Shown piece by piece: positions 4,304 to 26,663 of a DNA stretch of 32,000 nt. This stretch comes from Fibrobacter succinogenes subsp. succinogenes S85 (lineage in GTDB: Bacteria; Fibrobacterota; Fibrobacteria; Fibrobacterales; Fibrobacteraceae). The notes below the pieces were generated by a model. The model made no database searches and was not told the DNA's origin. It was given only the letters and a program-made list of their open reading frames with translations. Every line of letters begins with the position of its first letter. Position 1 is the first letter of the stretch. The DNA is taken from positions 1,680,001 through 1,712,000 of the forward strand of contig NC_017448.1 in the NCBI RefSeq assembly GCF_000146505.1, read 5' to 3'. Made by a program: the position numbers and the translations under genes.

Positions 4304-7300
4304 ATGATAGAAGAACCGATGAGCCAAGAAGGCGGCATTTCTATTCATCTCGCCTCCCCGGAGCAAATCCGTTTCTGGTCCTATGGCGAAGTGACAAAGC
4401 CGGAAACGATTAACTACCGTTCCTTCAAGCCTGAAAAGGATGGTCTTTTCTGCGAAAAGATCTTTGGACCGATCAAGAACTGGGAATGCAACTGCGGCAA
4501 GTACAAGCGCATCCGCTACAAGGGCGTCGTCTGCGACCGTTGCGGTGTTGAAGTGACTCACTCCAAGGTCCGTCGCGAACGCATGGGCCATATTGAACTC
4601 GTGTGTTCTCTTGCTCATACCTGGTTTGTCCGCAACCAGCCGTGCGTCATCGGAGCCCTCCTCAACCTCAATACCAAGGACCTCGACCATATCATCTACT
4701 ACGAAAAGTACGTGGTGATTGATCCGGGAACAACCAACCTCGAAAAGAACTCCTTGATTGACGAAGAAGAAAAGCAAAACCTCATTGACGAAGGCCGTGA
4801 ATTCGTAGCTAAGATGGGTGCAGCAGCAATCAAACAGCTCTTGGATAGCCTTGACTTGACCAAGCTCTCCGAAGAACTCCGCTTGCAGGCTACTTCCAAG
4901 TCCAAGACCAAGCAAGACGAAGCCGTAAATCGCCTCAAGGTCGTTGAGGCATTCCGTAAATCCCAGATGGAAAGCTTCCGCACTTACTACAATAACCCAG
5001 AAGCAGCACAAAAGCGAGACAGAGACAAAATTTGGCTCAAGGGTCTTGCCGAAGCTGTTGCCGAATTCAAGGTTGACTACGAAGCCAAGCACTCCGACTT
5101 TGTGCTTGCCGACGCCTACGAAGAATTCCGTCACAAGTATCCGACTGAGGCCCGTCTCTTTGCAAACCAACCATCTTGGATGATTCTCGACGTGATTCCG
5201 GTGCTTCCGCCGGACCTGCGTCCGCTCGTACCGCTTGAAGGTGGCCGCTTTGCCACCTCCGACTTGAACGAACTCTATCGCCGTGTCATCAACCGCAACA
5301 ACCGCTTGAAAAAGTTGATTGACATCCGTACCCCTAACGTGATTCTCTGCAACGAAAAGCGTATGCTCCAGGAAGCTGTCGACCAGCTGTTCGATAGCGA
5401 CCGCCGCACCGTTCGTGCTGGTTCTGCACGTCCGCTCAAGAGCCTCGCTGAACTCCTCAAGGGTAAGCAGGGTCGCTTCCGTATGAACTTGCTCGGTAAG
5501 CGTGTTGACTATTCCGGCCGTTCCGTGATTGTCGTGGATCCAGAACTCCGCCTAGACCAATGCGGCCTCCCCAAACGCATGGCACTTGAACTTTACAAGC
5601 CGTTCATCATCCAGCGCTTGGAAGAAGAAGGCATTGTCTACACGCACAAGTCTGCTAAAAAATACGTTGACGCAAATCGTCCTGAAGTCTGGGACATTCT
5701 TGAACAGATTATTGAAGACCACCCGGTCATGTTGAACCGCGCTCCGACGCTTCACCGCTTGGGTATCCAGGCCTTCTATCCGAAGCTCATCGAAGGTAAC
5801 GCGATTCACCTCCACCCATTGGTCTGTCCGGCTTTCAATACAGACTTTGACGGCGACCAGATGGCGGTGCATCTCCCGCTTTCTTTTGAAGCACAGCTTG
5901 AATGCCGCGTGTTGATGCTTTCTTCGAACAACATCCTTCACCCATCTTCTGGTCAGCCGATTACGGTGCCAAAACAGGATATGGTACTTGGCCTGTACTA
6001 CCTAACCAAGCCACGTCCCAACCGCAAGGGTGAAGGCATGCACTTTTATGCCCCGGCCGAAGCCATCAGCGCTTACGAAAACGGTGCCGTGGATTTGAAC
6101 GCCAATATTTATCTTAAACTAAAAGCGGGTCAAAAAATTTACAAGGGATCCGTTGAAAAAGACATCATCCTTGAAGAAGACTGCATCATCAAAACAACCG
6201 TCGGCCGTATCATCTTTAATGATATTGTCCCGCCTGCACTTGGCTACATCAATGAAACCCTTAACAAAGAATTTATCACAAATTCCATTGATAATCTCTA
6301 TCATCGTGCAGGCAACCGAGTGACCGTCGATTATCTCAACAACCTCAAGGCAATCGGTTTCAAGTGGGCCACAAAAGCAGGCACTTCCATCGCAGTAGCC
6401 GACATCCTAATTCCGAAGGAAAAGCAGGAATTGCTCAATGCCGCCACCAAAGAAATCAGAAAGATTCGCGCCCTTTACGAAGACGGTGTCATTACTGACG
6501 GTGAACGTTATAACCAGACAATTGACGTGTGGTCCAAGACGACGTCCAACGTTGCAGCCAAGCAGTGGGACTCGCTCTCTCACGACCGCAATGGCTTCAA
6601 CCCGCTTTATATGATGGCCGACTCCGGTGCTCGTGGTAACCGTGAGTACATCAAGCAGTTAGCCGCAATGCGAGGATTGACGCAAAAGCCGATCAAGCAA
6701 CTCGGTGGTCAGGAAGTTATTGAAAACCCGATTAAGTCCTGTTACCGAGAAGGCTTGAACGAAATGGAATACTTCATTTCATCTCATGGAGCACGCAAGG
6801 GGTTGGCCGACACCGCTCTAAAGACGGCTGATGCAGGTTACCTAACACGCCGTCTTGTGGACGTGGGCCTGGATCTCGTGATTACCGAGAAAGACTGCGG
6901 TACGGCGAACGGTATTGAAGTATCCGCACTCAAGGACGGGGACGATACAGTCATTCCTCTTGAAGAACGTCTTCTCGGTCGCGCACCGGTCGATGACATC
7001 AAGCATCCAGTCACAGGCGAAGTGATTGTCAAGGCAGGCGAACTCGTGAACGAACGCGACCTTCCGAAAATTTCTGCAGCAGGTTTTGAGCACATCAGGA
7101 TGCGTTCCGTACTCACCTGTGAATCCCGCAACGGCGTGTGTGCCAAGTGCTATGGGCGCATGCTTTCTTCCGGTCGTCCGGTTGACCTCGGTGAAGCCGT
7201 GGGCGTGCTTGCAGCACACTCCATCGGCGAACCGGGTACGCGTCTTACGCTTCGCACCTTCCACATTGGTGGTGTACATTCTCCTTTGACCGTTGAAAAT

Positions 7301-8617
7301 TGCAAGAAGGCTATCGTTGATGGCCGCATTAAGCTTGAACAGATCGAAACCATTGAACACGAAGGCCAGAAAATCGTGGTTTCCCGTATGGGCGAACTCG
7401 TCATCTTTGACAACACCGGCATTAACAAGGGCCGTTACCAGATTCCGTATGGCTCTATCATGCACGTTGGAAACAACGCTATCGTCAAGAAGGGCGACTG
7501 CATGTTCGAATGGGATCCGTACAACAGCCCGATTATCACGAACGTTGCCGGCAATGTCGTTTTCTTCAACATGGTGGACAAGCAGCACGGTAAGAACAAA
7601 TTGCATCCAGCCATTATCATCAATGATGACCGTGGCGAAAAGGTTGGCTACTTCATGTTGCCTGATGGTGCAATCCCCGCCGTGAAGCAGGGTGACAAGG
7701 TTGCCTCCGGTCAGGTTATCGCAAAGCTTCCGCGTGCTGCAGGTAAGACCCGCGATATTACCGGCGGTCTTCCGCGAATCGCAGAAATCTTCGAAGCGCG
7801 AGTCCCAAGAAACAAGGCATTCATCGCACCGGTTGACGGTCTCGTCAAGTACGGTAACGAAGTACGCAACTACCAAGAAATTGTTATTCAGCAGATGAAT
7901 GGCTACGAAATGAAAATGTTTGTTCCGCTTGGTATCCATCTAATAGTCAACGAAGGCGATCGCGTCCGTGCAGGTCAGAAGATTAGCGAAGGCTGCGTGG
8001 ACCCACACGACATCCTCGATATTCTCGGTCCCGAGCAAGCAGAGCTCCACTTGGTAAATGAAGTTCAAGCGGTTTACCGCCTACAAGGTGTGGCTATTGC
8101 AGACAAGCACATCGAATGCGTCGTTCGTCAAATGATGCGCAAGGTTCGTATTACTGATTCGGGTGATTCCGACTTCCTGCCGGGTGAAGAAATTACCAAG
8201 GACAGTCTCCGTACCGAAAACGATCGCCTAATCGCTCTTGGTAAAGCCATAGCGACATATCAACCGATGCTCCTTGGCATCACTAAGGCATCCTTGGCAA
8301 CGGACAGCTTCATTTCTGCAGCATCCTTCCAGGAAACCCAAAAAATCCTTACCCGCGCCTCCATCGAAGGACGTGTGGATCCGCTCATGGGTCTTAAGGA
8401 AAACGTAATTATAGGCAGGCTAATTCCATGCGGAACAGGCGCCCGCCACCTGCGAGACGCCCAAGTAATTGATGTCGATGCCGACGAAATGGAAGAACGC
8501 TCTCGTTATCTGAATGCCGTGTCTAGTTTTGTGAATGCAGTATCAGAAAATTCTGAAACCAGTACCCAAATCCAGATGCAGGATAACGAAATTGACACCT
8601 CTAACGAGGAAGAGTAA
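4304..8617 (+). CDS. rpoC: DNA-directed RNA polymerase subunit beta-prime
   Basis: Zinc ribbon [23 protein letters not shown]. Also [36 protein letters not shown] and [14 protein letters not shown]. The catalytic loop is [13 protein letters not shown]. The trigger loop is [16 protein letters not shown], followed by [13 protein letters not shown]. An alternative start at Met6 (4319) is possible. Confidence 0.97.
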
Positions 8618-10392: not shown

Positions 10393-11913
10393 TTAACGGA
10401 ACTCTAGGCTGTCCAGAGGAATTACAGTGAACGGCTTGAGCGAATCAAACATAGCGACAGGACCAACGATCGAAATCGTCATCTTTTCGCGGCTAAAGTA
10501 CTTCGCAATCATCGTCTTCACCTGTTCCGCCGTCACAGCATTGATTTCCTTCACATACTCAAGATAATGGTCATCCGACTTGCCCAGGAGCTCACCCCTT
10601 GCAAAAATGGAAGCGGTTGCAGCCGGGGAATCAAAGAGACTCGGCAAGCTTTCAACAAGCGACTTCTTGGCCTGCACAAGTTCTTCGTCCGTAGGGCCGT
10701 TCTTCGCAAGCTTTTCCACTTCCTCAAAAATGAGCTTCATGGCAAAGTCCACGGTCTCCACTTTTGTCTGGAGAGCAATCGTCGTCATCGCCGTGTCGCG
10801 GTAATCGTTACCCACCGTGCTATAGACGCTATAGGCAAGGCCCTCGTCACTACGGACACGGTTCATAAGTCTAGAACTAAAGCTTCCACCGCCCAGGATG
10901 AAGCTAGCGACAGCAGTCGGGTAATAATCCGGATGCGGACGCTTCACAAACGGCTGGTTCATGGTGATGTTCGCCTGCGTGATATCCTTGTCGACCACGT
11001 ACACACCGGGCTTGCGGGCAAAAGCAAGCGGTGCTGGCTTCGGCGATTCGGCCTTCGGTGATTCGACCTTCCAGTCCGCAAAGAACTTCTTGAGCGCGAC
11101 TACCGCAGAATCCTTGTTGACATCACCGGCAAGCGCAAAGACGATGCGTTTCGAAGAGAACACGCCCTTTGCAAGGCGCTTCACGTCGGCAGCGGTGACA
11201 GCCTTGTATTCAGCGGCATTGGCATCCCAGAGTCTCGGATTCGGGGCGTAGTTCACCTTGGCCTTGAGCGCCGAGAGTACCTTGGCAGGAGTTTCATAGC
11301 GGCGTTCATAAGCGGTGACGTAATTCGCCTTCATGATTTCAAGCTGATTCTTGTCAAAGGCCGGGTCCGTCAGCACCTTTTTGGCGAGTTCAAGCATCGA
11401 CGGGAAGTTTGCAGAAAGGCAGTTGATATCAAATGCCGAGAGGTACGTGCCAACGCTCGTCGAAATGGACGCACTTACGAATTCCAGGGAATCTTCAAGG
11501 ACATGCGGAGAAATACCGCCACCCGCACCACGACGGATCATGGAACCAACCATTTCAAAAGCGGCTTCGTCCTTCAGGACCTGCGGCAAATGGCTTTCTT
11601 CAAAATAGACCGAGAAATCCACTAGCGGAAGCGTACTGTCACTGACGATATAGCCCGTAATTCCATCTGCAATTTCTACACGGAAATCCTTCGGGTACGG
11701 AGCGACATACTTATATTCAGGGAATTCAATCTTGCTATAATGTTCGGGCAATTGGCTAGACACCCCCATTGCAGAACTAGAACTATCCACAGCGGAAGCG
11801 TACATATCCGGCACATGCTTCACATGCGGTGACTTTTTTGGCATCATGGAGCATGATGTCATGGCCACCAAAGACACGCCTAGAGCGATATAAATCTTGT
11901 AATTCGTTTTCAT
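10393..11913 (-). CDS. Peptidase M16 (insulinase/pitrilysin) family lipoprotein, apparently lacking the HxxEH zinc motif
   Basis: Lipobox VAMTSC at the N-terminus. The M16-type two-lobe sequence includes FEMVGSMIRRGAGG, NQLEIMKANYVTAYERRYETPAKVL and RLMNRVRSDEGLAYSVYS. I found no HxxEH in the translation, so it is probably a non-catalytic or partner subunit. Confidence 0.7.
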   Translation of the reverse strand: MKTNYKIYIALGVSLVAMTSCSMMPKKSPHVKHVPDMYASAVDSSSSAMGVSSQLPEHYSKIEFPEYKYVAPYPKDFRVEIADGITGYIVSDSTLPLVDFSVYFEESHLPQVLKDEAAFEMVGSMIRRGAGGGISPHVLEDSLEFVSASISTSVGTYLSAFDINCLSANFPSMLELAKKVLTDPAFDKNQLEIMKANYVTAYERRYETPAKVLSALKAKVNYAPNPRLWDANAAEYKAVTAADVKRLAKGVFSSKRIVFALAGDVNKDSAVVALKKFFADWKVESPKAESPKPAPLAFARKPGVYVVDKDITQANITMNQPFVKRPHPDYYPTAVASFILGGGSFSSRLMNRVRSDEGLAYSVYSTVGNDYRDTAMTTIALQTKVETVDFAMKLIFEEVEKLAKNGPTDEELVQAKKSLVESLPSLFDSPAATASIFARGELLGKSDDHYLEYVKEINAVTAEQVKTMIAKYFSREKMTISIVGPVAMFDSLKPFTVIPLDSLEFR

Positions 11914-12149
11914 CTATTAGAAAATAGTAAACTTCTGGTAAAAAAAGATAAGCCAGGTCGGAGCATTCCAACATAGACCATGAAATTTACGGATTATTCG
12001 TCCCCATACCGAAATAAGTCATATATTAATACTTGAGCCTTCCTAGTGGCCACAACACGCGTAGTAAGCCTACCTCCGGCTTCCGCACAGTTCTCCAGTC
12101 GAGACACAAGCCCCACCAGGAAGGCTTCTTCAATCCCTCCTATGAAAAA

Positions 12150-12180
12150 GACCCGACGCGAGCGCGCCGGGCCTTTTTTA
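12150..12180 (-). terminator. Rho-independent terminator (bidirectional-looking) downstream of the VWA gene
   Basis: GC-rich hairpin: CCCG(A)CGCG at 12152-12160, loop AGC, CGCG(C)CGGG at 12164-12172. An A5 run lies on one side and a T6 run on the other. On the minus strand it sits about 37 nt after the stop at 12217. Confidence 0.65.
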
Positions 12181-12208
12181 GTAAACAGTGGTTAGTTAAT
12201 AGTGGCTA
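12181..12208. repeat. GT-initiated heptamer word array: GTAAACA GTGGTTA GTTAATA GTGGCTA
   Basis: Four in-phase heptamers. They share words, and the 11-mer CAGTGGTTAGT (12186-12196), with the arrays at 16929-16956 and 18716-18757. Confidence 0.7.
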
Positions 12209-12216
12209 GGTCCCCA

Positions 12217-13245
12217 TCAGCTAAAGCGACCATTGAGCTGTTTGCGGCGGCGGCCACGTTCCGAGATAACAGCCTCAATCAAAAACAGGAGGGCTGCAAG
12301 CCCGAGGAAAATCTGGTAGCGGTCCTGGTAATTTTCCATGCGGTCACTGCTCTGGTCCTTCTTTTCAAGCGTTGCAATTTCGGTCAAGACCTTTTGCAGC
12401 TGGAACTCGCCCGGACTTGCGTAAAAGTAAAGCGCACCCGTCACATTTGCAATTTCCTGAAGCGTCCCTTCTTCAAGGCGTGTCGTCACGATGTTGCCTT
12501 GCATATCCTTCTTGTAGACGCTACCGCCGTTCTTGTCCTTGAGCGGTATAGGCACGCCTTCGCGGGAACCGATACCGATTGTATAAATCTTGATGCCAAA
12601 TTCAGCCGCTTCCTTAGCGGCATTGACTGCTGCGGCTTCAAGTTCTTCGCCATCGCTCATGAGAATCATCACAGAATGTTGGCTTGCACCACCGGAGTTT
12701 TTGAACAAAGTCATACCCTTGCGGATAGCGCTTTCGAGGTTCGTACCCGGCATGAGCCACCCCGGATTGAGTTCACGAAGCACCATCTGCACCGTACCGT
12801 AATCAAGCGTCAAAGGCACCATGACCTGAGCTTCACCACTGAACGCCACAAGACCCACGCGGTCTCCCGTCAGAGATTCAAGGAAAGCCGAAATCTCGTG
12901 ACGACTACGCACCAAACGGTTTGGCTTCACATCTTCGGCAAGCATCGAAAGCGAAATATCCTGCAACAGCACAAGATCCTGGCCACGGCGTTCCACGTGT
13001 TCCATCTTGCGGCCCCACTGCGGACGGGCTAGTGCAACAAACAGGAATGCAATCGCGAGGAGCAAAAGCAAGACTTTAGTCAGGCGCCTCCACGGAGAAA
13101 CGCTCGTCGAAAGTTTCGAAAGCATAGGGAGCGATACAAAACGGGCAGCCAGTTTTTTACGGCGATGGTAAGCATACACAAACAGAAGTGCAAACAAGGG
13201 CAGAGTAAAAAGGCCCCACAAAAAATTCGGTTCGGCAAATCTCAT
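12217..13245 (-). CDS. VWA domain-containing membrane protein, BatA/BatB (aerotolerance) family
   Basis: N-terminal TM pair (FLWGLFTLPLFALLFVYAYHRRKK; VLLLLLAIAFLFVALARPQ). VWA MIDAS motif LLQDISLSM, then VGLVAFSGEA and ILMSDGE. A C-terminal TM anchor is present. Confidence 0.8.
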   Translation of the reverse strand: MRFAEPNFLWGLFTLPLFALLFVYAYHRRKKLAARFVSLPMLSKLSTSVSPWRRLTKVLLLLLAIAFLFVALARPQWGRKMEHVERRGQDLVLLQDISLSMLAEDVKPNRLVRSRHEISAFLESLTGDRVGLVAFSGEAQVMVPLTLDYGTVQMVLRELNPGWLMPGTNLESAIRKGMTLFKNSGGASQHSVMILMSDGEELEAAAVNAAKEAAEFGIKIYTIGIGSREGVPIPLKDKNGGSVYKKDMQGNIVTTRLEEGTLQEIANVTGALYFYASPGEFQLQKVLTEIATLEKKDQSSDRMENYQDRYQIFLGLAALLFLIEAVISERGRRRKQLNGRFS

Positions 13246-13403
13246 TATCTACTCCGATAAAACATCTTGTATCAACAAGCACCAAGAATATACAAAAGTC
13301 TGCGGAAAAAAACTTTTAAAATGGTTTTGATTTCTTTTCATAAAGTCTTCATACGAAAAGCTTGCAAATAGTTATATTTCCTACTAAGGTTCAGGTTGCG
13401 AGA

Positions 13404-14573
13404 ATGTCTTACGTAGGCTTAATAGAAATCAACATCATCTGCATAACAGTATTGCTCATTACACTGTTGCAGTTCAAGGATAGTATCCTCAGACACCTTG
13501 AAGAACGTATTCTCGGTTTTACCATCATCGATACCATCATCTACATCGTGTTAAGCACGGTGACCAAGATGCTGTACTCGGTGCATATCCAGAGCGACCT
13601 CTATTCCAGCAACCAGAAAATTTGCGTCATTTACGCCATCATGTACGCCCTGAGCTTGAGCTCTTCATTGCTCCTCGCCCAGCTGTGGTTCTCGTTTATA
13701 TTCCTACGAATCCGCAAAAGCGTCTACTCGTACAAACACCTGTTCCCGCTTTTTTCAACACCAAGCATTATCGGCATTTTCATCTGCATCGGCATCAGCA
13801 TCTACGGCTTTACAAACGACTGCCACACCACATCGTTGCAATTCAGGCGCCTACTGCCATTCCTCATCGGGCTGAACTTCATATACATTCTGGCGACAAT
13901 GGTGCTTGGCATTCAGCATGCCATTACGCAAAAGAATTCTACAAACCGCAAGGAAGCGTTCTACCTTTCATTTATAGCCCTTGTGCCAAGCGGAAGCTGC
14001 ATCATCCAGTACTTCGTTCCAGACATTCCGCTCACCGACCCGATTTTCGCGCTCACACTCCTGCACGTCTACGTCACGCTCTTGAAGTACAGAATCACGT
14101 CTGACCCACTTACCGGCGTGAACAACAAGATCCGACTGATCGAATACCTCCAGTACATCACACAGCACCAAGATCCGAGCAAGCGCCTGTTCATTCTCGT
14201 GATGGAAGTTGACTTTTTCAAGGATATTGTGCGCAACTTCGGTTATGAAATGTCCGACCGCGTCGTCGCCGACTTAGCATCTTTCTTCAAGCGCCAGTGC
14301 AGAGGACAAAACGCGTTTTTGGCAAGGACAAGGGACAACCAGTTTGCGATTGTCATGGAACGCGACGAGGTTTCAGAAATCGAATCTTTCTGCCAGAAGC
14401 TCGTACGTGAATGCGACCGCGACAGCATGCAGTCCGACATGACCACATGGAAAATTTCATTCAGCCTGCATTACGCTGAAATTTCAAACATCTCTACAAG
14501 CAATATTTCGCAAATCTTTGCCGAAGCCAAGAAGAACTGCTACAAGCCAGAAACTCCGGCACCGAAGGATTAG
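13404..14573 (+). CDS. Multi-pass membrane protein with a C-terminal degenerate GGDEF domain (RDNQF in place of GGDEF)
   Basis: About 6-7 predicted TM helices, then a GGDEF-fold signature: DPLTGVNNKIRL, FILVMEVDFFKDIVRNFGYEMSDRVV, and ARTRDNQFAIVM, where RDNQF (14331-14345) replaces GGDEF. There is no RxxD I-site upstream. The start was moved from the track's TTG (13362) to the ATG at 13404. Confidence 0.75.
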   Translation: MSYVGLIEINIICITVLLITLLQFKDSILRHLEERILGFTIIDTIIYIVLSTVTKMLYSVHIQSDLYSSNQKICVIYAIMYALSLSSSLLLAQLWFSFIFLRIRKSVYSYKHLFPLFSTPSIIGIFICIGISIYGFTNDCHTTSLQFRRLLPFLIGLNFIYILATMVLGIQHAITQKNSTNRKEAFYLSFIALVPSGSCIIQYFVPDIPLTDPIFALTLLHVYVTLLKYRITSDPLTGVNNKIRLIEYLQYITQHQDPSKRLFILVMEVDFFKDIVRNFGYEMSDRVVADLASFFKRQCRGQNAFLARTRDNQFAIVMERDEVSEIESFCQKLVRECDRDSMQSDMTTWKISFSLHYAEISNISTSNISQIFAEAKKNCYKPETPAPKD

Positions 14574-14611
14574 TCGGCAGAACTTAGTTGGCAGAGCTTA
14601 GAAATGCTTAA
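14574..14611. repeat. Tandem 14-mers TCGGCAGAACTTAG / TTGGCAGAGCTTAG followed by AATGCTTAA
   Basis: Two adjacent near-identical 14-mers (14574-14587 and 14588-14601), then AATGCTTAA (14603-14611). The same TTGGCAGAACTTAG ... AATGCTTAA unit recurs at 17057-17083. Confidence 0.7.
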
Positions 14612-14640
14612 AGAGAAAAGAGATGTTCTAAGTTCTAAAA

Positions 14641-15744
14641 TCACGGGATTCTCACGAATCGGGTGTTCGCAAGGATGAGTTCAAGCAGAATGAGGAGCGC
14701 ACCGACCAGAAGCCACGGGTAGAATTTTTCGGCATAGCGGGCGTAAGCAATCGTCTCAATTTCCGTTTTTTCGAGTTCATCGATTTCAGAGTAAATCTTT
14801 TCAAGTTCAGCCTTGTTTTCGGCACGGTAGAAACGTCCACCCGTCTTTGACGCAATCGCCTTGAGCACGTCCTCGTCAATGCCTTCCTCAGGCGTAATGT
14901 CGCGTTCGCCCCAGGAGATTTCACCAGTCCACGGGTTCTGCTGGAACGCAAGAATCTTGCCGGACTTTTTGCCGACACCGACAGTATAAACCTTCACGCC
15001 CAGGGACTTCGCCACCTCGGCAGCACGCACCGGCGGAACGACACTCGCATTGTCGCGGCCATCAGTCAAGAGAATCACCACGCGAGACTTGGCATCGGAC
15101 ATCTTGAGCCTGGCAAGCGCGTTCATCAAGCCATCGCCAATGGCGGTCCTGTTGTTCACAAGCGTATCGCGAGCAAGGTCGTCGCTTGCCTTCAAGATTT
15201 CAAGCAGGGAACCATAATCCATCGTGAGCGGACACTGCGTAAACGAGCGAGCGCCAAATGCCGAAAGGCCAATACGGTCGCTATGGCGCTTGCCAATAAA
15301 TTCGGCAATTACGTCCTGCGCGTAACCGAGACGGCTGTATTTCCAGTATTCGCCGCGTTTCAAGATTTTTTCGGCATTCATCACGCCAAGCTTCGCCTGT
15401 TCGGTACGGGTAAGCATGTCAAGCGTTCCCATAGAGCCCGAAACGTCAAGTGCAAGCATGATATCGACACCATCCGTCGAAGTGTATTCGACTTCCATCG
15501 CATTCTGCGGACGGGCAAGAGCCACCACAAAGCAAACGAGGGCAGCCAGGCGAAAAGCCGGAACAATATGCCTAAACCTTACACGACGGCTAGGAACCGC
15601 CTTCTTTGCAATGGCTAGCGCCGGGAACTTAATTGTACTCTTACGACGCTGCTGGCGGTAAACATAAAGCGCAACCAACAGCGGAACAAACAACAACAGC
15701 CAAAAGGCTTCGGGATTTTGAAAATGAAGGGCTCCAATATCCAT
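14641..15744 (-). CDS. VWA domain-containing membrane protein, BatA/BatB (aerotolerance) family
   Basis: N-terminal TM helices (AFWLLLFVPLLVALYVYRQQRRK; AFRLAALVCFVVALARPQ). MIDAS motif LALDVSGSMG, then ILLTDGRDN and VYTVGVG. C-terminal TM helix WLLVGALLILLELIL. Confidence 0.8.
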   Translation of the reverse strand: MDIGALHFQNPEAFWLLLFVPLLVALYVYRQQRRKSTIKFPALAIAKKAVPSRRVRFRHIVPAFRLAALVCFVVALARPQNAMEVEYTSTDGVDIMLALDVSGSMGTLDMLTRTEQAKLGVMNAEKILKRGEYWKYSRLGYAQDVIAEFIGKRHSDRIGLSAFGARSFTQCPLTMDYGSLLEILKASDDLARDTLVNNRTAIGDGLMNALARLKMSDAKSRVVILLTDGRDNASVVPPVRAAEVAKSLGVKVYTVGVGKKSGKILAFQQNPWTGEISWGERDITPEEGIDEDVLKAIASKTGGRFYRAENKAELEKIYSEIDELEKTEIETIAYARYAEKFYPWLLVGALLILLELILANTRFVRIP

Positions 15745-15830
15745 TTCAGCTCCAAAATAACGAAAAACGACAAATTACATGCAAGAATATACAATTTAGT
15801 CGTCGCGGAGACAATTCCGAAAACCGAATT

Positions 15831-16151
15831 CTACAACAGCATGAGTCCATCGACACCGAGCACGGTGAGACACGATACTACAGCGACTGTCACAAGGCCA
15901 CCACCGAGGAGCGATGCGACCACAGCGGCAAGGAGCGCGCAGGCGCCCGTCAAACGGCTATCCGTCGCAAAGAAGATCGCAGGCACGGTCATCGCACTGA
16001 GCACGGTATAAGGCACGTAAGCGAGGAACGAGCTCCAGAACACGCTCTTGAGCTTTTTGCGAAGCAAAATGAACGGCACCGCACGCAAGAACAGCGTCAC
16101 GCCAGCCATCACGAGCAAGTAAATCAAGTAAGTTTGCATGTTGATATTCAT
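15831..16151 (-). CDS. azlD: Branched-chain amino acid transport protein AzlD
   Basis: 106-aa hydrophobic protein (LVMAGVTLFLRAVPFILL...). Its start overlaps the azlC stop as ATGA (16148-16151), the classic azlCD arrangement. Confidence 0.75.
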   Translation of the reverse strand: MNINMQTYLIYLLVMAGVTLFLRAVPFILLRKKLKSVFWSSFLAYVPYTVLSAMTVPAIFFATDSRLTGACALLAAVVASLLGGGLVTVAVVSCLTVLGVDGLMLL

Positions 16152-16858
16152 TTGGCCACCTCGTCATCTGCATTGACGTTTTGCATCGGAAAGAGCCATG
16201 CTGCAATAAAGGATGCCACGAGTGCGCAAATGATAATTGCAAAACCGACAGACACGCCACTCAACGGCGGGAAGAACTTGAACGCGCAACTGAGCGCAAC
16301 CGCAATCACGACCGCAAAAACCGTCGGGCCATGCACCTTCATCTGCGGCACCACAATCGCCACAAACATGCCATAAAGAGCAACGCCAAGGGCATTCGTC
16401 ACCATCGCCGGGAGAATTTCACCGCAAATGGCACCAACCATCGTCCCAAGCGACCAGCCAATGTAAGGGAGCGTCGAAAGCCCAAAGAAGTAAATCGGCG
16501 TCACGCGCTTCTGCGACATTGCCACTGCAAAAATCTCGTCCGTGATGCCAGTCGCGAGCAAAAGGCGCTTTACCGTACCAAAATCCGACGAGACCTTCTG
16601 GGAAAGTGAAATCGCCATCAGCGAATAGCGGAGGTTGATAAAGAACGTCGCAAGCGCCATCTCGATAAACGTACCGGCAGCATCTGCCATGATCTGGAGC
16701 CCAGCAAACTGGCCTGCCGAGGTCAAATTCGTCATGGATATAAGCGTCACAAGCGGCCACGAAAAGATCTTTGAGCCCGCAATACCAAAAGAGAACGAGA
16801 CGGCAAAGTAGCCAAGCCCAATCGGGGAACCGTCCTTTAAGCCCTTCAAATAACTCAT
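16148..16858 (-). CDS. azlC: AzlC-family branched-chain amino acid permease/exporter subunit
   Basis: AzlC-like N-terminus GLKDGSPIGLGYFAVSFSFGI and the ...NLTSAGQFAG... motif. Polytopic membrane protein of 236 aa. Confidence 0.8.
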   Translation of the reverse strand: MSYLKGLKDGSPIGLGYFAVSFSFGIAGSKIFSWPLVTLISMTNLTSAGQFAGLQIMADAAGTFIEMALATFFINLRYSLMAISLSQKVSSDFGTVKRLLLATGITDEIFAVAMSQKRVTPIYFFGLSTLPYIGWSLGTMVGAICGEILPAMVTNALGVALYGMFVAIVVPQMKVHGPTVFAVVIAVALSCAFKFFPPLSGVSVGFAIIICALVASFIAAWLFPMQNVNADDEVAK

Positions 16859-16928: not shown

Positions 16929-16956
16929 GTAGGAAGTAGACAGTGGTTAGTAAACA
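16929..16956. repeat. GT-initiated heptamer word array: GTAGGAA GTAGACA GTGGTTA GTAAACA
   Basis: It uses the same vocabulary as 12181-12208 and 18716-18757, in a different order. It contains CAGTGGTTAGT (16941-16951) and GTAGGAAGTAG (16929-16939). Confidence 0.7.
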
Positions 16957-17056
16957 GCAGGACAAATGCGTAGGTCGAGTGTCGCGGTCAAGCTTGCTTG
17001 GACATGACCGAGGCCAGCATTTGGCACTTGAACGAAGTGAAAGTGCAAGTTAGAAG

Positions 17057-17083
17057 TTGGCAGAACTTAGACTCAATGCTTAA
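17057..17083. repeat. Second copy of the TTGGCAGAACTTAG ... AATGCTTAA unit
   Basis: TTGGCAGAACTTAG at 17057-17070 and AATGCTTAA at 17075-17083. Compare 14588-14611. Confidence 0.65.
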
Positions 17084-17095
17084 GGCTTAGGGCAT

Positions 17096-17125
17096 AAAAA
17101 AAGCCCGCAGCACTAAGCCACGGGT
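17096..17125 (-). terminator. Probable Rho-independent terminator after the 147-aa secreted-protein gene
   Basis: Minus-strand hairpin ACCCGTGGC-TTAGT-GCTGCGGGC with a 2-nt internal mismatch, followed by a U7 run (A-run 17096-17102 on the + strand). It lies about 25 nt past the stop at 17149. Confidence 0.5.
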
Positions 17126-17148: not shown

Positions 17149-17592
17149 TTAGTTTTCGCCGTTGCGCATTTCCATCGTTTCACGGTCCATCGTGTGCTGC
17201 AAGTATTCCTTGAAATCACGGTCGATGTTCACACCGTCAAAGTCGATGTCGTCGTTTTCCAACACGAACACGGCGCTCGGGTTATCAAGCCAGCCCACGA
17301 TGTCCACGTCTTCCAACTTCATGGACTTGTCGCCAGCCTTCTGGGCAACGTATTCAACCTTGGACTTCGGAACCCAGCCCTGACCGCAGGCGCCCTTCAC
17401 GAGGACTTCGGTATCGCCTTCTTTCAAGACTGTCATTTCGTCGTTGAAGCTAGCCGTGCAGACTACGGAGCCACCATCTTTTTCTTTGGTGAGTTCCACA
17501 TCGCCCAGCTTGGACTTGACCTTCTTGGCTGCAAAAGAAGAGGCAACCAGCAAAGCGAAGGCGACAAACATAATTTTTTTCATCATTTTCAT
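17149..17592 (-). CDS. Small secreted hypothetical protein
   Basis: Signal peptide MKMMKKIMFVAFALLVASSFA. The 147-aa product has an acidic C-terminal half. No family recognised. Confidence 0.65.
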   Translation of the reverse strand: MKMMKKIMFVAFALLVASSFAAKKVKSKLGDVELTKEKDGGSVVCTASFNDEMTVLKEGDTEVLVKGACGQGWVPKSKVEYVAQKAGDKSMKLEDVDIVGWLDNPSAVFVLENDDIDFDGVNIDRDFKEYLQHTMDRETMEMRNGEN

Positions 17593-17688
17593 AGCGAATC
17601 CTCAAAACAAGGGAAATATTCAACAATGCTATACGAATATACCTTTTATTTTGCCAATCCGTTGCATTTTCTTTTAAATTTTTACGCA

Positions 17689-18702
17689 ATGAAGAAGATT
17701 TTTTCAATTGCCGCCATTATCCTCGTTTTAACCGCTGTTTTTGCGTATTTCCACGTAAATCAACGGTTGAGCGCCGTTTCACTCAACGAAAATACCGTCA
17801 TTTTGGAGATTCCAAAGGGCAGTTCCCCCACAAAAGTTTTACAAATTTTACACGAAAAAGAGGTCTGGACAGACGACCTGGCGTTCAATTTGTGGTGCAA
17901 ACTGAACAAACCGGCCCTAAAAGCGGGCTGGTACGAGGTCCCCGCCCACCAGTCGCTTGATGAACTCACCGAGCTGTTCGAAAGCGGCAAAAACGCCGTC
18001 CGCAAGGTGACGATTCCCGAAGGTCGAGCCTCCTGGGAAATCCCCGCCTACCTCCAGAAAAGTTTCCCTAACCTTGACACGGCCCGTTGGAACAAACTAG
18101 TCCAGGACCCGAAGTTCGCCCGATCGCTCGGCATCGAAGGAAACTCTCTTGAAGGCTACCTGTTGCCGGACACGTACCCGTTCGCCATCAATTCCGATGA
18201 AGAATCCATACTGCGACAGATGGTCGCCGCAAACTTCAAGGTACGCGACGAAATGAAGGCACGCAAAAGCCCCATGTGGGATAAGCTTAAAAACTGGCAC
18301 CGCGTGTTGACACTTGCAAGCGTGGTCGAAGAAGAAACGGGCATCCCGGACGAACGTCCGCTCATTGCAGGCGTGTTCCATAACAGATTGGACATTGGCA
18401 TGCCGCTCGGAGCAGACCCGACGGTGCGGTTCATCTTCAAGAACTTGACAGGTCCCATCTACAAGAGCCAGTTGAACAGCGACAGCCCCTACAACACCCG
18501 CAAGTTTCCGGGACTGATGCCCGGCCCGATTTCAAATCCGGGTCGCAAGGCTATTGAAGCAACGCTTTTCCCGGCAAAGACGAGCGCACTTTACTTTGTA
18601 GCAAAAGACGATGGTTCACACACGCATTTCTTCAGCACGAACCTCGCCGATCACAACAAGTACAAGGACGTCGCCGCCAAGAACCGCGGCGAAAAGAAGT
18701 AG
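17689..18702 (+). CDS. mltG: Endolytic peptidoglycan transglycosylase MltG (YceG-like)
   Basis: N-terminal TM anchor MKKIFSIAAIILVLTAVFAYF. YceG-family motifs are LKAGWYEV, VTIPEGRASWEI, LEGYLLPDTY, ASVVEEETG, IAGVFHNRL, LGADPTV, YNTRKFPGLMPGPISNPG and YFVAKDDGSHTHFFSTNLADHN. The track ORF's upstream 165 codons are antisense to the neighbouring gene and were trimmed. Confidence 0.9.
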   Translation: MKKIFSIAAIILVLTAVFAYFHVNQRLSAVSLNENTVILEIPKGSSPTKVLQILHEKEVWTDDLAFNLWCKLNKPALKAGWYEVPAHQSLDELTELFESGKNAVRKVTIPEGRASWEIPAYLQKSFPNLDTARWNKLVQDPKFARSLGIEGNSLEGYLLPDTYPFAINSDEESILRQMVAANFKVRDEMKARKSPMWDKLKNWHRVLTLASVVEEETGIPDERPLIAGVFHNRLDIGMPLGADPTVRFIFKNLTGPIYKSQLNSDSPYNTRKFPGLMPGPISNPGRKAIEATLFPAKTSALYFVAKDDGSHTHFFSTNLADHNKYKDVAAKNRGEKK

Positions 18703-18715
18703 CGGCGGAGCCGCA

Positions 18716-18757
18716 GTGGTTGGTGGTTAGTGGTTAGTAGGAAGTAGGAAGTAGGAA
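18716..18757. repeat. Two abutting tandem heptamer arrays: GTGGTTG (GTGGTTA)x2 then (GTAGGAA)x3
   Basis: Six in-phase heptamers read directly from the sequence, in the 119-nt spacer between convergent mltG and the patatin-like gene. The array puts TAG in all three + strand frames. Confidence 0.85.
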
Positions 18758-18821
18758 GTTCTGAGAACGTAACGTCACCTCATACCCCAGAGCACCCGTA
18801 AGGGTGCGAGCCCATACCTAA

Positions 18822-21086
18822 CTAAAACAGATTGTAGTCACCGATGCGGATAAAGTATCTGTAGTTTTTGAATTCTCTCAAATCACCAAACGTTTCCGTA
18901 TCAACAACGCGGTTAAGGCCTGCGTAAACAGTAAACGAACGGTACTTATAGCGGAGCGCCGGTTCAAACACAAACTTATTTGAATTCAGCTTTGCTGTTG
19001 CCTTGTCTTCAAAATCGTGGACATACGCAAACGAAAGCCATGCGCCAAAGCCATGACGGTGAACACCACCGTTTAAGCGCAACATCGCATAACCATGCGT
19101 TGAAAGTTCTGGATCTTGCCAGTCCCCGGACCACGGCGTTGCCGCCACATGCAGGCGATAACGGTCTTCCATCGCGGGATTGTCAAAATTCTTGGGGTAC
19201 GCCATGCTGCCACCATCACGATAAGCATCAAAGCCCATAGCCATGCCCATCGTTATCGAAGCATTCCTAGCCGGTGAATAGGAGAGCCTTCCATCAAGAG
19301 TGTAAATCCCGTGAATCGGGCCTCTCTGGTGGAACCCGACCCCAATCAAGTTCATGCCAAGGCTTGCATTTGCGGCATAGCCCTTTGTGGCAAACCAGGG
19401 GTCATCTTCGCCATTCAACAACGAATAGTGAACACTCTGCGTCACCGGACTAGTCTCATAATTACTACTCGTATTCACGACGACATCGTCAAAGAAGTCT
19501 TCTTCGGGAATGGCGCTCGGAGCAAGTTCAAACTCGCGACTGCCAAACAGGAACTTGACCTCGACTGACTGCATTTTATCAATCGCGTATTTTGCAGACA
19601 GGAAAAGATCGTTACGCTTTTCAAACTTGATACGGTTCTCTTCAGGCACATTATCCTTCTCGAACGTCTTCAAAAAACACAACTTCATCAAGTCATAGCC
19701 AAAGCTAAATTTCCAGCGACGGTTAATCAAGTTCGAAAGCTCCAAACGCGGACGGAATCCGTAAGACGACGTCCCATAAAAGCCAGCCAACTTAAAACTG
19801 ATTTCCATCTGGTTGACGTAATTGAGAGCCACTTCACCATAGGCGTTAGCACCAATCACGTTAGAACCAAAGCCGCCCACCGCTACATCGACAGTCGGGT
19901 GAACGCCCACATCAATCAGGAGATCGCCTTCAGGCTGCATATTGAACGAGATTGTATCGTAAGGAGCCTTCGCCGTAATTGAATAAGCAAAGTTTGATGG
20001 AGCCACAAAGCCCGTATCTTCGGGACTCCAGTAAGAAGCAACCGCCGAATGGTGTTCCGACGAAAGACTGTCAAAAACAGGATTGAAGGCGAACCAAGCT
20101 TCGGACTTTTGCTTGTCCGTGTATTCCCTACGTCCATCAACCAACGGAATAATCTCGCGCAAACGACCTTCCACTGCCGAGAATCCCGCCTGAATCATGG
20201 ACTTGCGGGACGTATCGCGAATGGAATGCGCCCTCACAAACACGCCCTGCACATCACCCAGCTTTGACAAGACGTTGTTCTTAAGTTGACGCGTTTCAAC
20301 ATTGCCGTCCAAATCGTAACGAACGGGATCCGGCACAACGATAAGCACCGCTTCTTGCGGGTTCTTGACCAGGGGCAAAGCCAAGTACGGACAAAGTTCA
20401 CCGGACTTTTCATTCCCTGAAAGCGGGAGCGATGCGACAATATCGGCATAAGACGGATTTTCAATCACGCTATCGCAAGTCTGGAGCGTAAAGGGGATAC
20501 GATAGGAACCACGCTGGCGGTAAAGAGACTCCTCAAAGCGGAGGCGCGAAAGCGAACGTTCAATGGAAGCGGTATCGGGGACAAGCGCATGCATACTGCG
20601 ATAGACATTCCCTGCCGAATCCGCATAGAACGAAAACCTTTGGCGAAGCGTCGGGATACCCTCTATCGATAGCGGAATATCAAAACCGCTATGCTCTGTT
20701 TTATCATGGATCGTATTCGCCCCAACGAACTCAACAATCGAAGGATCCATCATCAAGCGCTGGATATCGTCAATCGAGACACCGAGCGACCAAAGCGCAC
20801 CCATCCAGGCGCCCCACGAAGTGGCGACAATGGAATCCACGGGAATCTTGTATTCTTCCAAAGCGTACAAAGCGCCCAAATGGAACCATGGCGAACGCTC
20901 GCCACCGCCGAGATAAAGCACAGACTTGGTCTTCTTGGCCTGCAGTGAATCGGGAACAAGCTGCATAGCGCTCAAAAGCGTTTCATCAGCGGAATGTGCC
21001 GCCTGGGCAGGCGCCACATAAACAGCAGCAATCGCCACTGCCAAAAGGAGCGTTTTTTTAAGCCAGCCGTGCGGGGTTGGAAACAT
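18822..21086 (-). CDS. Patatin-like phospholipase domain protein with a C-terminal outer-membrane beta-barrel (PlpD / type Vd-like architecture)
   Basis: Signal peptide ...VYVAPAQA/AHS. Patatin oxyanion motif LYLGGGERS and nucleophile elbow ATSWG (a variant of GxSxG). The C-terminal ~350 aa show alternating beta-strand-like sequence rich in G/Y/F and end in ...IRIGDYNLF, with the terminal aromatic typical of OMPs. Confidence 0.7.
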   Translation of the reverse strand: MFPTPHGWLKKTLLLAVAIAAVYVAPAQAAHSADETLLSAMQLVPDSLQAKKTKSVLYLGGGERSPWFHLGALYALEEYKIPVDSIVATSWGAWMGALWSLGVSIDDIQRLMMDPSIVEFVGANTIHDKTEHSGFDIPLSIEGIPTLRQRFSFYADSAGNVYRSMHALVPDTASIERSLSRLRFEESLYRQRGSYRIPFTLQTCDSVIENPSYADIVASLPLSGNEKSGELCPYLALPLVKNPQEAVLIVVPDPVRYDLDGNVETRQLKNNVLSKLGDVQGVFVRAHSIRDTSRKSMIQAGFSAVEGRLREIIPLVDGRREYTDKQKSEAWFAFNPVFDSLSSEHHSAVASYWSPEDTGFVAPSNFAYSITAKAPYDTISFNMQPEGDLLIDVGVHPTVDVAVGGFGSNVIGANAYGEVALNYVNQMEISFKLAGFYGTSSYGFRPRLELSNLINRRWKFSFGYDLMKLCFLKTFEKDNVPEENRIKFEKRNDLFLSAKYAIDKMQSVEVKFLFGSREFELAPSAIPEEDFFDDVVVNTSSNYETSPVTQSVHYSLLNGEDDPWFATKGYAANASLGMNLIGVGFHQRGPIHGIYTLDGRLSYSPARNASITMGMAMGFDAYRDGGSMAYPKNFDNPAMEDRYRLHVAATPWSGDWQDPELSTHGYAMLRLNGGVHRHGFGAWLSFAYVHDFEDKATAKLNSNKFVFEPALRYKYRSFTVYAGLNRVVDTETFGDLREFKNYRYFIRIGDYNLF

Positions 21087-26512: not shown

Positions 26513-26663
26513 ATGTTCAATCTCCTTAAGATTGTTTTTTTGAATTTTTCAAGAGCTCTTTTTTTCGGCTCCAAATTTAGATGGAATTAGCCCTTTTGAC
26601 TAATACTTTCTTTCAATAAGATTCATAATTAAAAATTATGAATTAGGGTTTTTCTATAAGGAG

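Follow-up and report, generated by a model that had tools for sequence, protein, structure and literature searches.

Intergenic heptanucleotide arrays of the STRR type in Fibrobacter succinogenes S85 and other members of the genus Fibrobacter

Introduction

Short tandemly repeated repetitive (STRR) sequences, which have been known in the heterocystous cyanobacteria (Calothrix, Nostoc, and Anabaena) since about 1990, are arrays of 7-nucleotide (nt) units joined head to tail; they are found in many dispersed intergenic copies, belong to a few unit families per genome, differ in length from strain to strain, and have no known function. To our knowledge, no function has so far been accepted for heptanucleotide arrays of any kind. 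The present analysis deals with such arrays in a 32,000-nt stretch of the genome of Fibrobacter succinogenes S85 (positions 1,680,001 to 1,712,000 of NC_017448.1, referred to below as the window) and in particular with the focal array, located between the genes for MltG and a patatin-like protein. A preliminary description of this sequence proposed a dispersed, phased, intergenic family of heptamers of the STRR type, and this proposal is supported by the data presented below. The arrays probably represent the Fibrobacter version of the cyanobacterial STRR, or long simple sequence repeat, class and are probably driven by slippage and locally dispensable. They extend a phenomenon already described elsewhere to another lineage and do not reveal a novel mechanism.

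The window was analyzed together with 63 Fibrobacter/Fibrobacteraceae loci and 15 unrelated control loci, all retrieved with the same MltG protein; the search space comprised ∼1.15 Mb of Fibrobacter loci and ∼36 kb of S85 (the window and locus L543). All four features of the broad class of heptanucleotide tandem repeats were found: exact 7-nt units joined head to tail, noncoding location, dispersal of arrays with common units, and length changes in 7-nt steps. Like the cyanobacterial STRRs, the Fibrobacter arrays are head-to-tail, dispersed, intergenic, and strain variable; however, they come from another phylum, consist of other units, and have a stronger mosaic character, in that a single array combines several words built on an AG/GT anchor. 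They do not belong to the strict STRR1 to STRR3 families: in the window and the 63 Fibrobacter loci, tandem dimers of CCCCAGT and CAACAGT were absent, and a dimer of TTGGTCA was found once.

The Calothrix STRR report is cited by Rehm et al. 2015 (PMC4692102), who described the repeats GGGAATC in Xanthomonas and GGGGA(C/T)T in Nostoc PCC 7120. The Xanthomonas repeats are intergenic, consist of heterogeneous units with fixed and free positions, show no preferred strand, form inverted pairs in 70 to 75 of the ∼185 repeat patterns per genome, and retain their sites while differing in length between sister species (PMC4692102). The heterogeneous units, inverted pairs, length variation, and lack of strand preference are all shared by the Fibrobacter arrays. 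The GGGAATC and GGGGAYT units contain tracts of three or four G residues and form G-quadruplexes in vitro (PMC4692102). Assignment of the Fibrobacter arrays to such a G-quadruplex class (at least 4 consecutive units, each with a G tract of at least 3) had to be rejected, as their units contain GG at most and no dimers of GGGAATC or GGGGAYT were found in the window and the 63 Fibrobacter loci.

Direct repeats of TAACTGA are present in marine Beggiatoaceae, some cyanobacteria, and Bacteroidetes (MacGregor 2015; PMC4679880). They are intergenic, mixed with other heptamers in some genomes, subject to strain indels in 7-nt steps, patchily distributed, and without known function; in the Beggiatoaceae genome, most TAACTGA sets have the sense orientation and lie a short distance upstream of start codons (PMC4679880). 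The Fibrobacter unit AGTAACT, read in another phase as TAACTAG, comes close to TAACTGA, but the Fibrobacter arrays lean to gene 3' ends and have no fixed orientation. Given this lean and the absence of TAACTGA dimers from the window and the 63 Fibrobacter loci, membership in the TAACTGA set was rejected.

The survey of long simple sequence repeats (SSRs) with units of 5 to 11 nt by Mrazek et al. 2007, as relayed in both of these papers (PMC4679880 and PMC4692102), found heptanucleotides to be the most abundant long-SSR class in most genomes and mostly intergenic, and proposed a link between the grip of the polymerase on DNA and slippage. That survey is older than the S85 genome, and, as far as these accounts of it go, the conserved anchor and the genome-specific vocabulary of the Fibrobacter arrays fall outside its description. 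Published accounts of other heptamer families describe the behavior seen here in Fibrobacter, with heterogeneous units, inverted pairs, differences in length among relatives, and a suggested connection with polymerase slippage (PMC4692102 and PMC4679880).

The Fibrobacter arrays also resemble repetitive extragenic palindromic (REP) sequences, bacterial interspersed mosaic elements (BIMEs), and MITEs (miniature inverted-repeat transposable elements) in being intergenic modules of mosaic structure that form hairpins at the ends of genes and are present in some strains and absent in others. They differ from these elements in that the unit is a 7-nt direct repeat, with no fixed ∼35-nt palindrome and no target-site duplication. 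CRISPR arrays, with their 23- to 50-nt repeats and unique spacers of similar length, do not match the contiguous 7-nt units. No description of heptamers in Fibrobacter was found in the searchable literature, in agreement with the preliminary description, which was aware of no Fibrobacter equivalent.

Arrays in the window

The sequence of the focal array at positions 18716-18757 (GTGGTTG GTGGTTA GTGGTTA followed by three copies of GTAGGAA) was confirmed, as were those of the arrays at 16929-16956 (GTAGGAA GTAGACA GTGGTTA GTAAACA) and 12181-12208 (GTAAACA GTGGTTA GTTAATA GTGGCTA). Exact matches to GTGGTTAGT start at positions 12188, 16943, 18723, and 18730, all four of them intergenic and on the plus strand, and GTAGGAA is found in the window at 16929, 18737, 18744, and 18751. 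The Pfam gene map and the called genes bore out the intergenic location of the three sites: position 18716 lies 13 nt beyond the MltG stop codon, position 12208 lies 9 nt from the stop codon of a minus-strand BatA/VWA gene, and position 16929 lies 71 nt upstream of azlC. Tandem Repeats Finder detected repeats with a period of 7 at 18715-18738 and at 18736-18759 and repeats with a period of 14 at 12178-12209 and at 14570-14601, the last of which is a site that the preliminary description did not include.

The 2.2 kb of intergenic DNA in the window contain three runs of phased GT (at least four GT dinucleotides at 7-nt spacing) and none at periods 4 to 6 or 8 to 12; shuffled sequences had a mean of 0.05 phased-GT runs, and none of 1,000 reached three. 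Similarly, lag-7 self-similarity was detected in four intergenic regions of the window, as opposed to none for each other lag from 4 to 12, and none of 500 shuffles reached four. The arrays of the window are thus well above the level expected by chance.

Altogether, the window contains five arrays rather than three, the additional two being located at 14571-14640 and 17048-17096 (Table 1). All five sit within a 7-kb span, are G rich on the plus strand, and share a syntax in which AG (often as TAG or AGT) recurs every 7 nt. The plus strand of the 45-nt tract 18715-18759 contains no C, so that its minus strand contains no G. The 14571-14640 element combines a left arm (AGTCGGC AGAACTT AGTTGGC AGAGCTT AGAAATG) with a right arm of two GTTCTAA units at 14626-14639, and the TAG stop codon of the GGDEF gene is situated at the junction into its first unit. 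Genuine terminator-like sites adjoin two of the arrays: the one at 12179-12213 is flanked by a two-way terminator hairpin (12150-12175, with a T run) and by the stop codon (12217) of the minus-strand BatA/VWA gene, and the one at 17048-17096 adjoins the minus-strand terminator (17124-17095) of the gene for a 147-amino-acid (aa) protein.

Abundance and vocabulary in Fibrobacter

Lag-7 arrays proved to be abundant across the genus Fibrobacter, where they occupy noncoding gaps beside gene ends. In the close relatives of S85 (87 to 96% MltG identity), 41 such arrays, ∼1 per 6 kb, were found in intergenic DNA and none in coding DNA. These 41 arrays account for ∼9% of the intergenic bases (9.4% and 9.2%), compared to ∼4% (4.3% and 3.7%) for the 54 intergenic arrays of the other, more distant Fibrobacter and 0.2% for the single array in the 15 non-Fibrobacter controls. 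In each of these sets, lags 4, 5, 8, 10, and 11 yielded 0 to 2 arrays per lag, and so did lag 13 in the close relatives. As a phenomenon, the arrays are therefore conserved in the relatives of S85 (63 loci), and this cultivable rumen cellulose degrader and its genus, with ∼9% of the intergenic DNA near the locus in arrays, join the list of array-rich lineages.

In the distant Fibrobacter, 23 lag-7 regions were formally "coding," most of which fell into the 5' part of naively called open reading frames (ORFs) that were too long. Arrays of TTCGGAT, GTTCGAG, and GGCTCGA are located within the 5' part of the patatin-like ORF, ∼2.1 to 2.6 kb past the MltG stop codon, in eight distant loci (L026, L030, L031, L037, L039, L041, L049, and L070). 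These may be either spacer arrays enclosed in over-long ORF calls or in-gene 21-nt (7-aa) repeats.

Arrays of one genome have vocabulary in common. Common 7-mers were found in 49% of the pairs of arrays at different sites of the same genome, compared to 28% of the pairs from different genomes, a difference that none of 500 label permutations reached; thus, each genome uses its own vocabulary. An inverted complementary array is present within 250 nt of 47 of the 96 arrays, and such pairs fold into long hairpins (z of -4.8 in L061, -2.0 in L011, and -2.5 in the window at 14565-14645). The focal array lacks an inverted partner, and neither of its strands folds significantly (z of -0.35 and -0.86). 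A structured RNA at this site was accordingly rejected, as it folds no better than shuffled sequences.

Variation between strains and species

Ten contigs encode the identical AzlC protein; eight of them match S85 at each spacer that they reach, and the remaining two, L001 and L002, represent a sister strain. In the sister strain, the MltG-patatin spacer is 27 nt long, versus 119 nt in S85, with a 92-nt block that carries most of the focal array gone, and the spacer upstream of azlC is without a 147-nt array-bounded block. Both blocks are missing although the encoded AzlC is identical, and the focal array is dispensable in this strain. The sister strain also contains seven GTTCTAA units, versus two in S85. 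In addition, the 14571-14640 element is duplicated, with a further copy (95% identity) located where the SpoU gene ends (3' end); the two spacers of L001 concerned, ∼6 kb apart, share 95% identity over a 65-nt stretch of this heptamer element (∼80 nt as judged by eye). Arrays can be deleted, or copied to another spacer, within blocks of 65 to 150 nt. The array at 12179-12213 is unchanged in all strain contigs (L001 to L009) that reach this spacer.

The orthologous site at the 3' end of the MltG gene was compared in 14 species with MltG identity of 87 to 96%. The GC hairpin CGGCGGAGCCGC that follows the MltG stop codon is found, with small variants, in most of these close relatives. It is followed by anywhere from 0 to more than 20 heptamers, and the counts shift by whole units: GGTT-type and AGGA-type units number, respectively, 3 and 3 in S85, 4 and 2 in L069, 3 and 2 in L012, and 1 and 2 in L020, with at least 20 units in all in L019 and none in L014, L018, and L022. 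Several lineages use the alternative words AGTTACT, AGTTAAT, AGATACT, and AGACGAG, and the more distant species use TGAGTTG, GTGTGGG, and GTGTGAG. Orthologues of the array upstream of azlC, again with differing unit numbers, are present in L013, L015, L019, and L072. In several loci, the stop codon of the gene itself is at the junction into, or inside, the first repeat unit.

From strain to strain and from species to species, arrays differ by the gain or loss of entire 7-nt units, which agrees with the behavior of a slippage hot spot, one of the options put forward in the preliminary description. Judging from this comparison of strains and species, the arrays would grow, shrink, and diversify through slipped-strand mispairing in a 7-nt register at replication, combined with point mutation, which would produce the "shuffled words." Within a genome, words might be homogenized by recombination or copying between arrays, and arrays would be expected to survive at places where they interrupt no essential function, for the most part immediately beyond stop codons. 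An array with a nearby inverted complement could form a long hairpin in several pairing registers and may serve as a 3'-end structure.

The same blocks could be taken for small nonautonomous mobile elements of the MITE type that insert beside stop codons. Such elements would explain the discrete presence or absence of 92- and 147-nt blocks with arrays at their ends, the nearly identical L001 stretch at two spacers, and the resemblance of inverted arrays to terminal inverted repeats. However, the tail of the first block (18726-18817) has no other copy in loci L001, L002, and L011 to L073, and the core of the second (16963-17046) has none in the Fibrobacter loci searched, contigs of the same strain aside in both cases; the edges of both blocks show neither a target-site duplication nor a defined terminal repeat. 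Besides, deletion in L001/L002 fits better than insertion in S85, because the relatives have arrays with different contents at the same sites. A mobile-element origin is disfavored for the two indel blocks, whose cores lack further copies in the other Fibrobacter loci searched (contigs of the same strain aside), and appears highly unlikely for the arrays in general.

Other segments of these spacers vary as well. L001 carries an extra insertion of ∼311 nt, AT rich and with a called 93-aa ORF, at 10851-11247 (the spacer corresponding to window positions 15745-15830) and another of ∼248 nt, GC rich and hairpin prone, at 13624-14029 (window spacer 13246-13361); the latter has CATGACCGAG in common with window positions 17005-17014. 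The spacers in the species of S85 are a patchwork of small variable segments. In L011, L014, L031, L037, and L049, which represent several Fibrobacter species, a recurring hairpin module, GTCATCCTCGC-NNNN-GCGAGGATCC or GGATCCTCGCCTGCGCGAGGATGAC, which looks like a REP-like dispersed palindrome, stands beside heptamer arrays downstream of the MltG gene.

GTGGTTA arrays beyond Fibrobacter

A scan with a query of two and a bit GTGGTTA units found GTGGTTA arrays in at least 120 metagenome contigs, with at least 120 viral contigs also containing them (32 to 70% GC). The metagenome matches listed have 33 to 68% GC, come from many sample types, and are nearly all true arrays with a GT....A pattern, often with inverted TAACCAC partners; an additional 37 lag-7 regions, built from a wide variety of units, are present in the same contigs. 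The matches probably come from several lineages, judging from the spread of GC content and sample types. Hence, the family is not Fibrobacter specific. The preliminary description had suggested a lineage-specific family, which does not hold in view of these contigs and of the occurrence of this kind of repeat in several phyla (PMC4692102 and PMC4679880).

In viral contigs, the at least 120 matches to GTGGTTA compare with 75, 83, and 57 matches to three permutations of the same composition, and the at least 83 arrays of four or more units compare with 37, 39, and 20. GTGGTTA is therefore favored but not unique, as the permutation controls also form arrays.

Slippage and alternative explanations

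Several observations weigh against attributing the arrays to slippage alone. Purely neutral slippage predicts neither the nearly exclusive period of 7, with lags 5 and 8 virtually absent, nor the conserved GT/AG anchor. AG is phased in 34 of the 42 arrays of close relatives and in 41 of the 54 arrays of other Fibrobacter (∼78%), though their words differ. Among 240 GTGGTTA arrays from many taxa, one-step variants at the seven successive positions number 12, 12, 30, 42, 36, 34, and 33 (p = 5e-5), so that G1 and T2 vary ∼3 times less than positions 3 to 7. As for location, 63% of the arrays have a 3' end as their closest gene end, compared to 51% of random intergenic positions, and convergent spacers, with the MltG site excluded, contain 35% of the arrays but make up 23% of the intergenic length. 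In spacers between tandem genes, the mRNA sense strand is the C-rich one in 17 cases and the G-rich one in 6, although these cases are not independent, as many of them are orthologous. The period, the anchor, and these positional preferences are hints of selection or of a sequence-specific process.

Two explanations based on polarity were rejected. The G-rich plus strand of the window arrays, together with the negative skew of the window, suggested a link to the replication strand, which was ruled out by 46 independent metagenome contigs, where array orientation is unrelated to GC skew (positive in 22, negative in 24). A link to transcription was ruled out by 80 metagenome loci: the gene located 5' of the G-rich strand runs in the direction of that strand at 39 of them and against it at 30. 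The short distances to minus-strand "starts" in the metagenome data are an artifact, because the longest-ORF calls end at stop codons of the arrays. Any explanation thus faces three constraints: a period of 7 essentially alone, a GT/AG anchor, and no orientation bias with respect to genes or GC skew.

The positional preferences could mean that the arrays are 3'-end RNA elements, with paired arrays serving as terminator or stabilizer hairpins and unpaired ones as Rho-loading tracts similar to Rho utilization (rut) sites. In the latter case, G-free, C-rich, unstructured tracts (UUCCUAC and UAACCAC repeats) would load Rho for the gene that reads into them. The lean toward 3' ends, the excess in convergent spacers, and the predominance of the C-rich sense strand in tandem spacers fit this explanation, as do the inverted partners of about half of the arrays, some of which fold strongly, and the fact that each of the five window arrays lies 3' of a gene on the minus strand. 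In addition, the minus-strand RNA of 18715-18759, devoid of G, is unpaired in the centroid fold. On the other hand, the focal region lacks a significant fold on either strand, most of the hairpins have no U run, and tandem and divergent spacers also contain arrays, the latter 13 of the 62 found outside the MltG site. Moreover, orientation is unbiased in the metagenome loci, the array is gone in the sister strain despite the same flanking genes, and the array at 12181 already has a canonical terminator beside it. Such a role is unlikely for the arrays as a whole, and, for the focal array, the possibility of an intrinsic terminator was rejected, as the centroid folds leave it unpaired and it lacks a U run.

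The preliminary description also proposed a multiframe stop buffer, i.e., that the arrays close all three reading frames just beyond gene ends. Indeed, with TAG every 7 nt, a stretch of 21 nt suffices to shut three frames; 78 of the 96 arrays have every frame blocked on one strand or both, compared to 21% of length-matched control intergenic segments; and, as noted above, the stop codon of the gene itself is at or inside the first unit at several loci. However, a phased stop codon is found in 44 of the 96 arrays, close to the 49% expected for random heptamers in a back-of-the-envelope estimate (uniform base composition, either strand), which means no excess of stop-containing units. Such frequent units as AGACGAG and GTGTGGG have no stop codon on either strand, TTCGGAT has none either, and arrays are also present in divergent promoter spacers. 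The proposal thus finds no support in the unit composition, and selection for stop codons is extremely unlikely to explain the arrays.

The strict period and the anchor, in turn, could mean that the arrays are docked onto by a protein that binds single-stranded nucleic acid and has a ∼7-nt footprint, such as a cold-shock domain or an S1-type oligonucleotide/oligosaccharide-binding (OB) fold, with one GT/AG unit per domain. CspB of Bacillus prefers a GT-started heptamer. Proteins of the cold-shock, S1, and CsrA types have been proposed to act on the TAACTGA repeats (PMC4679880), and a reader of this kind would be compatible with an anchor that is retained across Fibrobacter and many other taxa while the other positions drift, and with a separate vocabulary in each genome. 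Nevertheless, a reader specific for one strand is hard to reconcile with array orientations that show no bias with respect to transcription or GC skew, the arrays are polymorphic between strains in their very presence, and the binder is putative. This explanation is quite unlikely.

A broader version would be a shared "heptad code," in which one GT-anchored unit at a time is read by a widespread single-strand-binding protein or by a polymerase or primase step. Its basis is the strict period of 7 and the anchor that is kept as the rest drifts, both in Fibrobacter and in the GTGGTTA contigs. Such a code, which we consider a long shot, would, if true, provide a common cause for heptanucleotide arrays from the cyanobacterial STRRs to Fibrobacter.

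Slippage in dispensable spacers remains the preferred explanation. In practice, the arrays are hypervariable strain markers for Fibrobacter. They may also break assemblies, since a number of contigs, L019 for instance, stop inside arrays and several from metagenomes stop inside or right at the array, and can mislead ORF calling, since open frames are bounded by arrays.

Gene setting and other features of the window

The coordinates of the arrays, the associated blocks, and the neighboring genes are listed in Table 1. A 502-aa ORF that starts at 17194 on the plus strand and runs to 18702 overlaps the minus-strand gene for the 147-aa protein and is an over-extension: the YceG domain begins at its residue 204, and the gene calls begin MltG at 17626. 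The majority of the window genes are on the minus strand, and GC skew on the plus strand is negative over the whole window (1-32000), including a plus-strand rpoC paralog. A tRNA scan of the window found nothing, and nothing reached the gathering score in an Rfam 15 scan, which gave weak matches of the terminator type at 11850-12260 only.

TABLE 1 Heptamer arrays, associated features, and neighboring genes in the window
Feature	Positions	Strand	Sequence or remarks
M16 peptidase gene	10393-11913	-	
Array	12179-12213	+	TAGTAAA CAGTGGT TAGTTAA TAGTGGC TAGGTCC
BatA/VWA gene	12217-13245	-	
GGDEF gene	13362-14573	+	
Inverted heptamer element	14571-14640	+	Left and right arms; fills the GGDEF-BatA convergent spacer
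BatA/VWA gene (second)	14641-15744	-	
AzlD and AzlC genes	15831-16858	-	
Array upstream of azlC	16929-16965	+	GTAGGAA GTAGACA GTGGTTA GTAAACA (GCAGGAC)
∼147-nt block	16936-17083		Left array, hairpin-rich unique core, right array
Second array in the spacer upstream of azlC	17048-17096	+	AGTTAGA AGTTGGC AGAACTT AGACTCA ATGCTTA AGGCTTA GGGCATA
Gene for 147-aa protein	17149-17592	-	Own terminator (17124-17095); no Pfam match
MltG/YceG gene	17626-18702	+	358 aa; gene calls
Short GC hairpin CGGCGGAGCCGC	18703-18714	+	Between the MltG stop codon and the focal array, abutting both
Focal heptamer array	18715-18763	+	AGTGGTT GGTGGTT AGTGGTT AGTAGGA AGTAGGA AGTAGGA AGTTCTG
92-nt block	18726-18817		Most of the focal array, unique tail, and hairpin GCACCC-GTAA-GGGTGC (18792-18807)
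Gene for patatin-like protein	18822-21086	-	
Weak AT-rich lag-7 region	26616-26655		In another spacer; passes the relaxed 17/28 threshold only; family membership uncertain

A noncoding stretch of ∼150 nt on the plus strand (12036-12185) is almost invariant in eight Fibrobacter species. Its two ends pair over a long range (GAGCCTTCCT.GTGG with CCAC.AGGAAGGCTT) and enclose inner hairpins; it also has a terminator hairpin with a T run at 12150-12180 and, upstream, the conserved TATATTAATA. This stretch, which has no Rfam match other than terminator-like ones, is a candidate for a small RNA or for a conserved leader/terminator region; its structure is not proven, because compensatory change is seen at two pairs only.

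The rpoC paralog (4304-8617, plus strand) is a full-length gene for an RNA polymerase beta' subunit of 1437 aa, located between the genes for MlaD and the SpoU methylase with no adjacent rpoB. By sequence comparison, its product would be a divergent paralog, 81% and 76% identical to the canonical Fibrobacter RpoC (L545 to L547), which is encoded in the usual rplKAJL-rpoB-rpoC-rpsL-rpsG operon. Deletions of 26 and 22 aa distinguish the divergent protein, as do altered versions of near-invariant motifs (NADFDGD to NTDFDGD and GEPGTQ to GEPGTR). The gene occupies the same site in S85 and one relative (L544, 95% identical), is absent from the sister-strain contigs L001 and L002, and has no tblastn match in L011 to L073; no paper on this gene was found. 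An alternate beta' subunit also features in the paper on the TAACTGA repeats (PMC4679880).

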